DNA of 64,000 nt from Devosia sp. (GTDB lineage Bacteria; Pseudomonadota; Alphaproteobacteria; Rhizobiales; Devosiaceae): positions 848-64,847 of the forward strand of contig NZ_JAQGJV010000020.1 in the NCBI RefSeq assembly GCF_028290435.1, in the 5' to 3' direction. Below, piece by piece: positions 50,139 through 56,510 of the stretch. The notes below the pieces were generated by a model. It had not been told where the DNA came from. It did no database searches and saw only the letters and a program-made list of their open reading frames with translations. A program made the position numbers and the translations under genes. Numbering within the stretch: position 1 is the stretch's first letter; each line of letters begins with the position of its first letter.

Positions 50139-52151
50139 ATGACCGAAACTAAAAAAGTCCGCTGGGGCATTATCGGGCCGGGCTCGATCGCCAAGGCATT
50201 CCAGGGCGGCGTTGCCGGCTCCAAGCATGCTGAACTGGTCGCCATCGCCACCCGCAATCCCGAAAAGCCGGGCCTCGCCACCGACTTCCCCGGCGCGCGC
50301 ATCCTCAAGGGCTATGACGCGCTGCTGGCCGACAAGGACGTCGATGCGATCTATATCGCGACGCCCCATCCCGGCCACGCCGAATGGGCGATCAAGGCTG
50401 CCGAAGCCGGCAAGCACGTGCTGGTGGAAAAGCCGATGGCGCTCAGCGCCTTCGAGATCGACGCCATTTTCCACGCCCACCGCAAAGCCGGTACCTTTGC
50501 CGGCGAAGCGTTCATGTATCGCCTGCACCCGCAGGTCAAAAAGCTGGGCGAGCTGATCGCCTCCGGCGTCATCGGCGAAGTGCGGATGATCCAGTCGAGC
50601 TTCGGCTTCTCCATGGGCAAGTTCCAGCCGCAGCACCGCCTGTTCGCCAATGACCTCGCAGGGGGCGGCATTCTCGACGTCGGCGGCTATCCCGTATCGA
50701 TGTCGCGCTTCATCGCAGGCGCCGCCATGGGCAAGCCCTTCGCCGATCCGATCAAGGTTTCCGGCACTGCCAAGCTCAACGCCGAAGGCACCGACGATTG
50801 GGCCGCCGCGGTCCTGACCTTCGAGAACGGCATTGTCGCGCAGGTCTCCTGCGCCGTGATGGCCAATCTCGATAACGTGCTGCGCATCCATGGTTCTGAA
50901 GGCCGCATCGAGGTTCCCGAATTCTGGTTTGCCGGCGGCAATCGCGACCAGGGCCTCGGCCGCATCGACGTCATCAAGGGCGGCAAGACCGAAACCATTA
51001 GCGTCAACGAAACCGGCCACGTCTATGCCTTCGAGGCCGATGGCGCGTCCGAAGCGATCCTGGCCGGCCGTCATGAATTTGCCGCGCCGGGCATGAGCTG
51101 GGCCGATAGCCTGGGCAATGCCCGCGTGCTCGACAAGTGGCGCGCCGATGCCGGCATCGAATTCAACATCGAAAAGCCGGTGAAACGCGTCAACACGCTT
51201 TCGAACCGTCCTCTCGCTTCGGGCGGCACCGCCATCCCGAAGCGCTCGATCCCCGGCCTCACCAAGCAGGCCTCGGCCGTCGCTTTGGGTTTTGAGGATT
51301 TCAAGACCTTCTCGTCCGGCGCCATCCTGCTCGATGCGTTCTGGGAAAAGGGCGGCAACCTGTTCGACACCGCCTTCGTCTATGGCAGCGGCTATACCGA
51401 AAAGCTGTTCGGCGATTGGCACAAGAGCCGCGGTACCCGCGAGCAGTCGGTGCTGATCGGCAAAGGCGCGCATAGCCCGCTGGTCTATCCCGACGTCATC
51501 GCCAAGCAGTTGACCCAGTCGCTGGATCGCCTGCAGACCGACTATGTCGACGTGTATTTCATGCATCGCGATAATCTGGATGTTCCGGTCGGCGAGTTCG
51601 TCGATGCCATGGATGCCGAGGTCAAGGCCGGTCGCATCCGTGGTCCGTTCGGCGGCTCCAACTGGACCCGCGAACGCATGGACCAGGCGATTGCCTATGC
51701 CGACAAGACTGGCAAGCAACGCCCCGGCGCCCTGTCGAATAATTTCGCTTTGGCGGAAATGCTCGACCCGATCTGGGCCGGCTGCGTCACCTCTTCGACC
51801 CCAGAATGGAAAACCTGGCTCAACGATCGTCAGGTCACCAATTTCTCGTGGTCAAGCCAGGCCCGCGGTTTCTTCACCGACCGCGCCGGTCGCGACAAGA
51901 CCGACAACGAAGAACTGGTCCGCGTCTGGTATAACGAGCAGAACTTCGGCCGCCGCGACCGCGCGATCGAACTCACCAACAAGCTCGGCCATTCGCCGAT
52001 CCATGTCGCGCTGGCCTATGTGCTCGCCCAGCCCTTCCCCAGCATCCCGCTGATCGGGCCGCGCACGCTCGGCGAACTCGACGACAGCATCAAGGCGTTT
52101 GACATCAAGCTGACGCCGGAAGACCTGAAGTGGCTGGAAGACGGCAAGTAA
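50139..52151 (+). CDS. Gfo/Idh/MocA-aldo/keto reductase fusion
   Basis: N-half WGIIGPG, VEKP, DVGGY; C-half AKR tetrad FDTAFVYG, IGKG, YFMHRD. Confidence 0.88.
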   Translation: MTETKKVRWGIIGPGSIAKAFQGGVAGSKHAELVAIATRNPEKPGLATDFPGARILKGYDALLADKDVDAIYIATPHPGHAEWAIKAAEAGKHVLVEKPMALSAFEIDAIFHAHRKAGTFAGEAFMYRLHPQVKKLGELIASGVIGEVRMIQSSFGFSMGKFQPQHRLFANDLAGGGILDVGGYPVSMSRFIAGAAMGKPFADPIKVSGTAKLNAEGTDDWAAAVLTFENGIVAQVSCAVMANLDNVLRIHGSEGRIEVPEFWFAGGNRDQGLGRIDVIKGGKTETISVNETGHVYAFEADGASEAILAGRHEFAAPGMSWADSLGNARVLDKWRADAGIEFNIEKPVKRVNTLSNRPLASGGTAIPKRSIPGLTKQASAVALGFEDFKTFSSGAILLDAFWEKGGNLFDTAFVYGSGYTEKLFGDWHKSRGTREQSVLIGKGAHSPLVYPDVIAKQLTQSLDRLQTDYVDVYFMHRDNLDVPVGEFVDAMDAEVKAGRIRGPFGGSNWTRERMDQAIAYADKTGKQRPGALSNNFALAEMLDPIWAGCVTSSTPEWKTWLNDRQVTNFSWSSQARGFFTDRAGRDKTDNEELVRVWYNEQNFGRRDRAIELTNKLGHSPIHVALAYVLAQPFPSIPLIGPRTLGELDDSIKAFDIKLTPEDLKWLEDGK

Positions 52152-52676: not shown

Positions 52677-53162
52677 TTAGAGCTGTTTGGCGATCTGGGT
52701 GCTGAGCCAGCTTGTATAGGTCAGCCCATCCACCGCCACGGTGCTGTCGTTGACGCCGGAGGCGTCGCCCTGGTCGGCTAGGTAGGTGCACTGTGCGTAG
52801 CTACGCAGCGGCACGCCGAAGCCATTATCGGCGTCATAGGTCAAATTGACAGTGAACAGGCGGGGCCGCACCGTGCCCGCGCCGATCTCCTGAACATAGA
52901 ATTCGATTATGCTGGCGCTTCGGTTGCCCTGGGCTTTGGCGAGGGTGGCCCATTGATCGGCAGTGAGCGGCGTTGCAGTCTCGGCGAGGTCAATGCGGGC
53001 ATAGGTCGAGGGGGCCGCCAGTCGCTGCTTCAGGCTGCCCTCGCACGCCTTGAGCATAGCAGAATCGAACAGGTTCGAGATTCCGCCCCCCATGACCAGG
53101 GCTGTCGTTGCGGCCAATGCACCGGCGACGATGACGCCGGCCGCTACATACGCTCGCTTCAT
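52677..53162 (-). CDS. Hypothetical exported/membrane-anchored phage accessory protein (161 aa)
   Basis: Own RBS and ATG (MKRAYV), N-terminal hydrophobic helix, two Cys; intact. Confidence 0.7.
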   Translation of the reverse strand: MKRAYVAAGVIVAGALAATTALVMGGGISNLFDSAMLKACEGSLKQRLAAPSTYARIDLAETATPLTADQWATLAKAQGNRSASIIEFYVQEIGAGTVRPRLFTVNLTYDADNGFGVPLRSYAQCTYLADQGDASGVNDSTVAVDGLTYTSWLSTQIAKQL

Positions 53163-53176
53163 CGCAAATCCCCCGA

Positions 53177-53892
53177 TCAATGCTTTTGCGCAGACCAGAC
53201 GATGCGGTGCAAGGGGGGTGGGTTTTTGGCAGGCACGGGAAAGCGCCAGTTCGTATCGGCATCGGCCGCCAGCTCTAGGCGATTGTCTGGCGTGCGATAG
53301 AGCCGGCGCGGCAGTAGCTTCGTCGCCGATCTCCGCCAGATAGACGCCGGAGCGCAATGGCTGACCTGGGCGGATATCGAGGATGACTGAAGCGCCTTTG
53401 GGCAGAAGCGGGCCCATCCCGCCGTCATCGAGCGTGGCGTAACGGGCAGTGCTTTCGCTCAAGCCGAACAGATTGGATAGCCAGACGGCGCTGACGGCGA
53501 TGTCGGAGGGCACCCAGCGCTCGATGCTCGTGCCGGCCTGGTGGACGAGCTGCGGGCGCAAAGGCAGCAGTTGCACGAAGCCGGCAGCGGGTGTCGACAT
53601 GGGTCCGGCCTCGCCCAAACCCTGCCGCCAGCCCAAAGCCTCAATATCCGGGCGCTGCTGGTAGCCGGTGGCAACCCAGTCAAGTAACCTTGGCTTCGAT
53701 GGCGATGGGCAGGATGCCGTCTACCGGGAGACGAGCACCCTCCTTACGCCAGTTGTTGACGGTGTCGGGGCTGACTTTGGCCAGTTTTGCCGCCTTGGCG
53801 AGTCCACCGACCATCTCAACGAGCATGGCCACGCGCTCGTGCTGGGGCACGGAAAAACCGGGAATGCCAAGGGATTTCTGGAGGTCAGCCAG
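53177..53892 (-). pseudogene. CI-like repressor (HTH + S24-like domain) with two frameshifts
   Basis: Reconstructed LADLQKSL..HERVAMLV..VNNWRKEG..KVT/LDWVATG..GMGPLLPKGASVILD..GDE/LLPRRLYR..WSAQKH; shifts near 53683 and 53318. Confidence 0.75.
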
Positions 53893-53919
53893 GGTTGGTC
53901 TCCGTATGTGCGCAGACAG

Positions 53920-53957
53920 CCGATAAAATCGGTTGATAGATGCCGAGCAAATCAGTT
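53920..53957. promoter_or_regulatory. Tandem operator-like sites between the divergent HTH genes
   Basis: Palindrome CCGAT-AAA-ATCGG(TT) and related CCGAGCAAATCAG(TT) 23 bp downstream. Confidence 0.55.
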
Positions 53958-53999
53958 ATCGTCACGTAAATACTCGTCACTTTGACCGAAGGGGCGGTT

Positions 54000-54341
54000 A
54001 TGTCAGCTCCTGCCTTGTCGCATTCCGGGCATTCAAAAGTCGAGTCAAAAGCCGCGTCCGGATTAGACGCGCCGAGCGCTGTTGCGCTGGAGCGTCATGA
54101 ACGAGTGGCGTTGGTGGTGCGACTGCTCGGTGGCACCGGCCGCGCGGCAAAAATCGCCAAGGTCAGCCGTTCCACCATCGATAATTGGCGCAAGGAAGGC
54201 GTGAGCCAGCCGATCGACGGACTGCTCACGCTCGCTGTCGCTGCCGGCATCTCGCTGGACTGGCTGGCCGGTAGTGACCGCCAGATCGATCGCCAATTTG
54301 AGGCCGGGCTCGGTGAGTTCGGCCAGAGGGGCGGCAACTGA
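54000..54341 (+). CDS. Cro/Ner-like HTH protein, intact
   Basis: AAKIAKVSRSTIDNWRKEG..ISLDWL; divergent from the repressor; RBS GAAGGGG. Confidence 0.8.
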   Translation: MSAPALSHSGHSKVESKAASGLDAPSAVALERHERVALVVRLLGGTGRAAKIAKVSRSTIDNWRKEGVSQPIDGLLTLAVAAGISLDWLAGSDRQIDRQFEAGLGEFGQRGGN

Positions 54342-54776
54342 TGCTCGACGCGTCCCTACTCGACATGCTGGACGGGGGCGATGCCTCGGCGCTGGTCGAG
54401 ACCATTGCCAGCGCGCTGAGCCAAGGCTTGCCCCGAAAGTGCCGACGTCATCGCGGCAAAGATCGCCGAAACCACAGGGATCAGGCTCTCGGGTCACACC
54501 CTTTACACCTATACCGCACCCTCCAAATCCGACCGGCAGATCAGCCTGATCGAGTTCGTCGCCTTCGTCCGCGTGACCGGGGCCCTGTGGCTGTGGGATT
54601 TGCTGGTCGAGGACGATGGCCTAGTCGTGCTGCAGGGTGCCGAAGCCAAGCTGGCCCAGCTCGGCCATTTGCGCGAGCAGCGCAGGCGCCTTGATGACGA
54701 TCTGCGCGGGCTGGAACGCGAGCTGCGCGAGGACCCGGTGCATGTCTCCAAGCGCCGCCCCGGGAGCCATCCATGA
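54341..54776 (+). pseudogene. Mu-like early regulatory ORF, frameshifted
   Basis: MLDASLL..ALS/KACPESADVIAAKI..LYTYTAPSKSDRQISL..; one shift near 54421 restores an ORF ending at the TGA that overlaps the transposase start. Confidence 0.65.
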
Positions 54777-56140
54777 TGGCCTGGTTGACGGCCGCCGAAA
54801 TCGTGGAAGCGAGACTGCCCGGCCTGCCAGGCGACAAGGGCGCCCTCTCGCGGCTGGTGGCTCGTGATGGCTGGCGGGATAGTCCGTTCGCCCGTGAAGG
54901 CGAGCGCGGTTGGGAATACCATGCCAAACTGCTGCCGGCCGAAGCCCAGGCGGCTCTGGCGGTGCGATCCGCCAAGGCCGCGATGCCGGGCCTGCAGGTT
55001 GTGGCGGCCGAGCGGTCCGATAGCGCCTGGGCGCTGTTTGAAGCCCTGCCGGAAAAGACCAAAAGCGAAGCGCGCGTGCGCCTTTCGGTGCTGGACCAGG
55101 TTGGCCAGCTCAAGGCGGGTGGCATGAAAGCCGGAGATGCCGTGGCGCTGGTCGCACGGCGCGCCGAGGTGTCGCCCTCAACCCTGTGGGGTTGGTGCAA
55201 GCTGGTTGACGTCGTGCCGCGGGCCCATTGGCTGGCGGCGCTGGCGCCGCGCCACAAGGGGCGAACGGCCACGGTCGAATGCGACCCACGCGCCTGGGAT
55301 TTCCTTGTCGCCGATTATTTGCGCGCCGAGCAGCCCAGCTTCAATGCCTGCCTGCGCCGGATGATGGAAGCCGCGGCCGAGCATGGCTGGGCCCCGATCC
55401 CGGCTTCAAAGACCCTGCAACGCCGGCTCGAAAAGACCATACCGGCAGCTGTTCGCACCCTGGCACGCAATGGCCGCGAGGCCGCCGCGCGGCTCTATCC
55501 GCATCAAAGCCGCGATCGGTCGGGATTTGCCGCAATGGAAGCGGTCAATGCCGATGGTCACATGTTCGACGTGTTCTGCCGCTTCGAGGACGGCACGATC
55601 GGCCGCCCGACGATGGTGGGCGTACAGGACTTGGCGAGCGGCCTGATCCTGGGCTGGCGCGTGGGCGAAACCGAAAACTGGACCGCGGTGCGCCTGGCTT
55701 TTGCCGATGTCGTCACCCGGTTCGGCATTCCCCAGCAATGCTGGCTGGACAACGGTCGCGCCTTTGCCAGCAAGTGGCTCACAGGCGGCATGAAGACCCG
55801 GTATCGCTTCACCGTGCGCGATGACGAGCCCTCCGGCATCCTGACCGAATTGGGCATCAAGGTGCATTGGACCACGCCCTATCATGGGCAGGCCAAGCCG
55901 ATCGAGCGCGCCTGGCGCGACCTGTGCGAGGAGATCGCCCGCCACCCCGAATGCGCCGGCGCCTATACGGGCAACAATATCGACGCCAAGCCCGAAAATT
56001 ACGGCTCAAGGGCCATCCCGATCGACCAATTCCGCGCCTTGGTGCATCGGGAAATCGTGCGCCACAATGCGCGGCCGGGGCGGACGGGCGGGGTCTGTAA
56101 CGGCCGCAGTTTCGCGCAGACCTTTGCCGACAGCTACGCG
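54773..56140 (+). pseudogene. Mu-type transposase A, C-terminally truncated
   Basis: N-terminal WLTAAEI..LPGLP, DDE motifs NADGH, LDNGRAF and KPIERAW; similarity stops after RSFAQTFADSYA. Confidence 0.85.
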
Positions 56141-56510
56141 GGTGGCCTGGGCGCGACCCATGCCAGCCAGCCACGAATGGTACCGGGTCAATTCCGTGCC
56201 CTATGTCGAGGCTTTTGCCGATCGCACCATCCTGCTGCCGCGCGACGAAGACGTGCTGCGCGATCACCAGGCGCTGGCCTATGTCGGCGGCGTCATCAAG
56301 GTGCCCGACGATTTCCGCTTCAAAGGCGCCGATGGGCTTGATCGCCATGGCGATACGGCCATCGCCGGACTGCTGCTGTGGTTCGCCAGCCTGCAGGGCG
56401 CCATGGAATACGACTATCGCGGCGCCGGCGAGGCCACCCGGCCGGCCGAGGGGCGCATGACGGAGCGGCCCTATCATGCCGACGACTATGCCCGCAGCGA
56501 TGACTATCGA
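56141..56510 (+). pseudogene. C-terminal fragment of Mu gp28-like large terminase
   Basis: EWYRVNSVPYVEAFADRTILLPRDEDVLRDH..DRHGDTAIAG in another frame; boundaries approximate. Confidence 0.7.

Follow-up and report, generated by a model that had tools for sequence, protein, structure and literature searches.

A putative decayed immunity switch with paralogous repressor and Cro-like DNA-binding domains in a Mu-like prophage remnant of Devosia

Introduction

In coliphage 434, the repressor and Cro are encoded by divergent adjacent genes and have operators in common. Cro is a paralogue of the N-terminal domain of the repressor and shares its five-helix fold; the identity between 434 Cro and the head of the repressor is about 48%. 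In this lambdoid phage, the C-terminal domain of the repressor is an S24 autoprotease activated by RecA. A different repressor architecture is found in 186 CI (PDB 2FJR, 2FKD; PF07022), in which an HTH head of the PF07022 type is joined to a C-domain that has the S24 fold and lacks the protease residues. In phage Mu, the repressor c is encoded leftward at the left end; Ner, a small DNA-binding protein, is the product of the first early gene, which points rightward and precedes transposases A and B.

These three systems are the closest described counterparts of a locus in a 64,000-nucleotide stretch of Devosia sp. DNA (the window), which belongs to a high-GC genome (assembly G000, 99 contigs, 4.58 Mb). 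The locus resembles 434 cI/cro in its layout and in the paralogy of its two proteins, 186 CI in the architecture of its repressor, and Mu c/Ner in its gene order. The lytic partner of 186 CI, Apl, is not known to be a paralogue of CI.

The repressor pseudogene

The leftward gene of the locus encodes a 186 CI-type repressor (53177-53877, minus strand) with an N-terminal HTH domain and a non-catalytic S24-like C-domain. Its coding sequence is spread over three minus-strand frames (53877-53683, 53684-53319 and 53317-53177). The first frame encodes the HTH domain and runs into a stop codon; LDWVATG...EIGDEA continues in the second frame, and the C-terminal LLPRRLYR...QKH lies in the third, which ends at 53177. 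The first frameshift is located near 53683 (53682-53685, minus strand), at the EAKVT/LDWVATG junction (GTTAC/TTGACTGG; net -2 or +1), where the aligned relatives have an unbroken AxVTLDWVATG. The second is located near 53318 (53317-53320, minus strand), at the EIGDE/LLPRRLYR junction (GACGAA-G-CTACTG), where one base is extra and the aligned relatives read GDE-LLxRRL.

Reading through both shifts yields a protein of 227 amino acids that can be aligned along its entire length with 13 intact proteins, which have 204-245 amino acids and are 45-69% identical to it. This end-to-end alignment justifies the reconstruction of the repressor already attempted in the first-pass annotation, and it indicates that the gene is a pseudogene, broken by two frameshifts in the assembled sequence. 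No ATG, GTG or TTG was found 5′ of the conserved GIPGF motif, which is included within the proteins of the repressor relatives. The names of these relatives refer to Devosia and Hyphomicrobiaceae, and this suggests that the Mu-like phage lineage has alphaproteobacterial hosts.

Profile searches of PDB sequences gave no match for the Cro-like family and just weak matches to the 186 CI C-domain for the repressor (E 0.18-0.5), so predicted folds were compared instead. For the repressor, the comparison was made with P0095, an intact relative (AF2, pLDDT 88.9), rather than with the broken copy of the window. The best PDB matches of P0095 in Foldseek are 186 CI (7jvt_C, 1.5e-6; 2fjr_A, 2.3e-6); the top matches include a lambda-186 hybrid, and the E-values for 186 CI and the hybrid span 1.5e-6 to 2.8e-6. 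The match to 2fkd_A is at 4.3e-4, and all 186 CI matches rank above LexA. The fold of the 186 CI C-domain is thus found in this relative, although the likeness in sequence is marginal (15% identity).

The catalytic residues of S24 proteases are largely absent from the family. Among 32 members, the column of the catalytic Ser contains Gly in 22, Ala in five, Val in one and Ser in four, and that of the catalytic Lys contains Arg in 28 and Lys in four. The window repressor has DGGMGP and PRRL at the dyad positions. It therefore lacks the Ser/Lys dyad in the manner of a 186 CI-type repressor, and does not carry the signatures of the LexA/lambda CI autoproteases (Ser in GDSM, Lys in KRL); the Pfam PF00717 score of 19.6 is under the threshold of 23.3. 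Given the loss of the dyad, members of this family are unlikely to undergo RecA-stimulated self-cleavage.

Downstream of the repressor, an open reading frame of 161 amino acids (52677-53162, minus strand) begins with a hydrophobic stretch like a signal peptide and has no Pfam match. The same spot is occupied by a conserved exported Cys-containing protein of about 105 amino acids in phages L023, L024 and L025, and by another exported protein in L033. This position resembles a slot for variable cargo at the phage left end.

The Cro-like gene

The divergent gene (54000-54341, plus strand) is intact and encodes a Cro-like protein of 113 amino acids. The ATG at 54000, preceded by GAAGGGG, is a more likely start than the alternative TTG at 53982, and the stop codon overlaps the ATG of the next gene at 54341. 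The protein scores 26.9 bits against PF07022 (Phage_CI_repr), for which the cut-off is 22, and its relative P0094 scores 31.8 bits. The repressor head remains under this threshold (17.6 bits for P0095, no match for the window fragment), and its assignment to PF07022 consequently relies solely on the 55% identity that it shares with the Cro-like protein. Neither window protein matches the Pfam domains of Ner (PF13693) or of the Mu-type repressor; in this the locus differs from Mu c/Ner.

The AF2 model of the Cro-like protein contains helices at residues 32-42, 46-53, 57-63, 72-82 and 86-89, with a core pLDDT above 90. Together they form a five-helix, all-alpha HTH domain of the repressor fold (residues 31-92, approximately). 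In Foldseek, the model matches P22 c2 (TM 0.77, rmsd 1.7 Å), 434 Cro (TM 0.71) and the 434 repressor, with superpositions on the three at 1.7-2.0 Å. It differs from 434 Cro by an N-terminal extension of about 35 residues, which is modelled with low confidence, and by a C-terminal helix. The N-terminal (F/L)SHxxxxxVESK motif and the short C-terminal helix of the Cro-like proteins have no counterpart in the repressors, and LDWLAG is found in Cro-like proteins where repressors have LDWVATG.

The conserved N-terminal peptide of the Cro-like proteins (54000-54100 in the window) reads LSHSGHSKVESKA; its forms in relatives are FSHPAGSGVESKA, FSHPATHGVESNR and MHSGVESVESNR. The longer Cro-like proteins (P0094, P0016, P0021 and P0037) and a Gp27-like protein of 110 amino acids (L001:5498-5830; present in L001 and L026), although otherwise unrelated, both end in a short helix with the pattern L(I/V)xLIDxR(I/V)xxxLxR. 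This helix could be a common dimerisation or partner-binding peptide, and DRQIDRQFEAGL in the window may be the same element. A terminator-like hairpin (54053-54071, minus strand) lies in the 5′ part of the Cro-like gene and faces the repressor gene; the count of such hairpins is at chance level for the region (one found, 0.9 expected). Survival of the Cro-like reading frame was considered as a sign of selection and rejected, because at the rate seen in the repressor (about two indels per 690 bp) a frame of 340 bp would remain intact by chance in about one case in three.

Operators and promoter

A row of operator-like sites occupies the DNA between the two genes. O1, CCGATAAAATCGGTT (53920-53934), contains the palindrome CCGAT-AAA-ATCGG and abuts the -35-like hexamer of a promoter-like element. 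O2, CCGAGCAAATCAGTT (53943-53957), lies inside the promoter spacer, and O3, CGTAAATACTCG (53965-53976), follows O2 by 21 bp and is placed just 3′ of the -10-like hexamer. A fourth site is degenerate in the window (about 53984-53996), and in relatives lies near the Cro start. The promoter-like element itself (53933-53962, plus strand; TTGATA, 18 nt, TATCGT) would serve the rightward early operon. The promoter scan found one such element where 0.1 was expected, bracketed by O1, O2 and O3, and found none for leftward transcription of the repressor. O1 and O2 match their common pattern, CCGANNAAATCNGTT, exactly and are its sole exact matches in the 64 kb, a uniqueness that is circular since the pattern was derived from these two sites.

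The same CGA-N5/6-TCG row is found in phages L023, L024, L025 and L034, in the same places and with spacings of 21-23 bp, the fourth site usually lying over the start codon of the Cro-like gene. CAAATCAGTTA of O2 is invariant in five phages (the window and these four), palindromes equivalent to O1 (ACGAcAAAAATCGT and similar) are present in L023, L024 and L034, and the promoter hexamers are conserved in the related phages. The two related sites at 53920 and 53943 that had been noticed from the window alone are thus joined by a third in phase, and conserved in four relatives. A shared set of candidate operators that is flanked by the two genes and overlaps the promoter-like element is supported by these comparisons. 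Their arrangement as three to four phased sites differs from the OR1-3 pattern of 434.

Specific paralogy of the two DNA-binding domains

BLASTP aligns the HTH domains of the repressor and the Cro-like protein with 32 identities in 58 positions (55%), 81% positives and no gaps (E 2e-25); identity is 53% in a 60-column alignment. A hand count in the first-pass annotation had arrived at 32 of 60, and its number of identities was exact. In an exhaustive phmmer search of 1.84 billion representative proteins, the Cro-like protein had just 81 matches at E≤1e-3, nearly all of them long repressor-type proteins or short Cro-like relatives of 89-142 amino acids. The exhaustive search was needed for the short relatives, as a word-indexed search with the Cro-like protein returned only the query. 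With matches so few and nearly all from the same family, the likeness exceeds generic HTH resemblance, and the two domains are true and specific paralogues.

No HTH of this family is encoded by the cultured phages in a collection of 50,697 records. The repressor shows no similarity to the divergent product in Aussie or RhkS_P1, both of them cultured Mu-like phages of Alphaproteobacteria (E 33 and 0.23), in agreement with the contrast to Mu drawn earlier.

The recognition helices had been described as near-identical. They are merely similar, with SPDTVNNWRK in the repressor and SRSTIDNWRK in the Cro-like protein sharing 6 of 10 residues and differing at positions 2, 3, 5 and 6. The T-x-x-N-W-R-K core of the helix is nearly invariant across the family, which fits a conserved operator core. 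Covariation of recognition-helix residues within phages was also considered and rejected, since none was seen in four pairs.

A Mu-like prophage in decay

The locus appears to be the immunity region from the left end of a Mu-like transposable prophage that has collapsed. When the proteins of phage L025 are mapped to the window, its repressor is recovered in three frames and its Cro-like protein at 65% identity over 79 residues. The next feature (54341-54776, plus strand) is a remnant of two early genes created by an internal deletion, with residues 1-36 of a gene of about 210 amino acids running out of frame into residues 54-163 of one of about 165. It is followed by a truncated Mu-type transposase A (54773-56170, plus strand), which retains residues 1-463 of about 621 and is 76% identical to the L025 protein; the match ends after residue 463, at about 56170. 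Neither MuB nor the later early genes of L025 have a match on the window. The transposase is at most 49% identical to proteins of cultured phages, the nearest being those of Microcystis phage Mwe-Yong1, Ochrobactrum POA1180 and Sinorhizobium Aussie. A second copy of the HTH family was not found elsewhere in the genome. Neighbouring host genes are open, for example a reading frame of 670 amino acids at 50139-52151.

Recurrence in related phages

The same divergent pair is present in four intact phage left ends: L023, L024, L025 (identical to IMG/VR L027) and L034. Their genes are ordered as a small exported protein, the leftward repressor, intergenic DNA of about 110-270 bp, the rightward Cro-like protein, proteins of about 210 and 165 amino acids, and MuA; MuB is seen in L023 and L025, where the contigs reach it. 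Divergent adjacent genes with significantly similar HTH domains, by which a 434-type switch can be recognised, are therefore found in the window (55%, E 2e-25) and in its relatives (47-70%). The 434 pair, at about 48%, comes close to this range. A lambdoid background with an autocleavable repressor was not found, the gene order being of the Mu type (MuA/MuB) and the dyad absent; the locus accordingly looks like one that works as 434 does without being a member of the lambdoid family. The first-pass annotation had implied that the layout was new. It is real but does not constitute a new principle, since at least four intact relatives share it and it had already been reported in coliphage 434.

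Other relatives depart from this arrangement. In L001 and L002, the repressor is 61% identical, the divergent slot is held by the unrelated Gp27-like protein of 110 amino acids, and no paralogue was found within 6 kb on each side of the repressor. In L026 (2-1564), a Gp27-like protein of 113 amino acids comes first and is followed by two HTH paralogues (100 and 96 amino acids) that flank the gene of about 210 amino acids. In L033 (833-2391), the first early slot holds a true Ner homologue (PF13693) and the second an HTH paralogue of 140 amino acids. The HTH of the latter is of the window repressor type, whereas the repressor head and operators of L033 itself belong to another type; the paralogue may represent a heterologous 'headless repressor'. 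The HTH module has been copied more than once in this phage clade, and the layouts of L033 and L026 imply that the paralogue is not always the Cro or Ner of its phage and that another role is possible.

Among 243 genomes of the same family, 16 besides that of the window contain a match, a single one each. These matches lie in long repressor-type frames, except the weakest (L021), which is a frame of 131 amino acids with an internal stop. No second paralogue was found in any of the 16.

Age and direction of the duplication

A maximum-likelihood tree was built from 39 HTH domains (64 columns). The Cro-like HTH of the window groups with that of L025 (96/88) and then with L024 and P0017 (98/93), whereas the repressor HTH falls within a repressor-only clade (98/89). 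Both the Cro-like and the repressor-only clades are nested among the closer repressors, and distant repressors branch outside. AU tests reject a sister relationship between the two HTHs of the window (p 0.009); one origin for the whole set of short, Cro-like forms is not rejected (p 0.34). Consistent with this grouping, the Cro-like HTH of the window is 70% identical to the Cro-like HTH of L025 and 53% to its own repressor. Identities within each phage are 53% in the window, 47% in L025, 54% in L024 and 70% in L023.

The two copies in the window share 0.62 of their nucleotides, with 0.62, 0.81 and 0.43 at codon positions 1, 2 and 3, a pattern that indicates an old duplication under constraint at the protein level. 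A repeat search found none in the intergenic region, where the operator sites are too short for it, or between the two HTH segments of the window, which have diverged too far. The duplication is older than the split between at least five phages and is not an event of this genome. The first-pass annotation had derived the switch from an inverted duplication and proposed a tree of both HTH domains with intact relatives as the check. Specific paralogy stands in that tree, but the neighbours are not sisters, and a local duplication at this locus finds no place in it.

L023 differs from the other phages. Its repressor-head and Cro-like coding segments (1228-1427 and 1710-1909) form an inverted repeat of 200 nt with 73% identity. 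Its pair, 70% identical at the protein level, is much more alike than the pairs of the other phages, and its Cro-like HTH, unlike theirs, finds its best similarity in its own repressor. A later exchange or a recent gene conversion between the divergent paralogues may have occurred in L023, a point that the 64-column alignment cannot resolve.

Proposed mechanism and alternatives

The overall explanation is probably a decayed immunity switch of a Mu-like prophage, with a repressor and a Cro-like protein that are paralogues. In the intact ancestor, a 186 CI-type repressor, its HTH head joined to an oligomerisation domain with a non-proteolytic S24 fold, would have been transcribed leftward. It would have occupied a phased row of three to four operators (CGA-N5/6-TCG, 21-23 bp apart) covering the rightward early promoter. 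Cooperative binding through the C-domain would have occluded this promoter and silenced the early operon, which comprised the Cro-like gene, two small genes and transposases A and B. The product of the first early gene, with an HTH that is an old duplicate of the repressor head and no oligomerisation domain, most likely bound the same operators without the cooperativity domain. It would thereby have shut off repressor synthesis and tempered early transcription, which is the role of Cro or Ner. We infer both the binding of the two proteins to the same operators and the regulatory outcome of the switch from sequence. The phased, conserved sites in the intergenic DNA and the kept core of the recognition helix point indirectly to shared operators. 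The two proteins may also prefer different sites, because their recognition helices differ at four positions (2, 3, 5 and 6).

As the main alternative, the small paralogue could be an anti-repressor rather than a Cro, poisoning the repressor for lack of an oligomerisation domain. It would do so by pairing head to head with the repressor on DNA, or by filling single operators and so disrupting cooperative repressor arrays, and such action would provide an induction route for a non-cleavable repressor. An anti-repressor would suit a repressor family without the Ser/Lys dyad, in which RecA-stimulated self-cleavage is unlikely, and would accommodate L033 and L026, where the paralogue exists besides another small DNA-binding protein in the Ner slot, as well as the lineage-specific extras of the Cro-like proteins (the N-terminal SHxxxxxVESK and the C-terminal helix). 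However, the gene lies within the repressed early operon and so cannot start induction, and the recognition-helix core is kept, as for a protein that itself reads DNA. The anti-repressor is thus unlikely.

It is also conceivable, though quite unlikely, that the early operons of this uncultured Mu-like clade carry the repressor-head HTH as a mobile cassette, aimed at relatives too and not just serving as the phage's own Cro. This idea arises from the Ner and foreign-type paralogue of L033, the two paralogues of L026 and the inverted repeat of L023, a hint of repeated exchange between its divergent copies. The immunity type of the L033 HTH paralogue is that of other phages rather than that of the L033 repressor. 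If the cassette were real, copies of headless repressors could act on resident heteroimmune prophages, binding or poisoning their operators or repressors, and would be anti-immunity or cross-exclusion factors.

Assembly errors would be another source of the frameshifts, in which case an intact repressor would regulate the Cro-like gene as part of a domesticated two-gene module. The intact Cro-like gene and operators agree with such a module. Nevertheless, it is very improbable: the shifts are two and independent, a start codon is absent 5′ of the conserved motif, the large deletions in neighbouring phage genes are beyond base-calling error, and the neighbouring host genes are open. Almost no credence can be given to the Cro-like frame as a functionless remainder of another, truncated repressor gene, such as one brought in by a second prophage end in inverted orientation: the HTH and, in P0094, P0016 and P0020, the linker LDWLATGHMVRPDL do resemble a cut-off repressor N-terminus, and the prophage is otherwise full of deletions, but the reading appears already largely refuted by conservation, as the same short gene stands in the same place in four intact phages with its own conserved N-terminal motif, a start conserved over the fourth operator and a stop overlapping the next start, codon position 2 is conserved at 0.81 against 0.43 for position 3, and no further copy of the HTH family was found elsewhere in the genome, which speaks against another such prophage end.

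Under the preferred reading of a decayed immunity switch, the switch appears dead in the window, with the repressor frameshifted twice and the early operon and MuA truncated; a broken repressor would leave no working switch.

Implications

For annotation, the message is that the locus would be a dead prophage remnant and not an active switch. Its wider meaning lies in the family. Alongside 434, these phages would represent a second, independent lineage whose lytic regulator arose from the DNA-binding head of the repressor itself. This lineage consists of Mu-like transposable phages without a cultured member in the phage collection searched. Five naturally diverged repressor/Cro pairs over a near-constant operator core would provide a compact system for the sharing and splitting of sites between paralogues.
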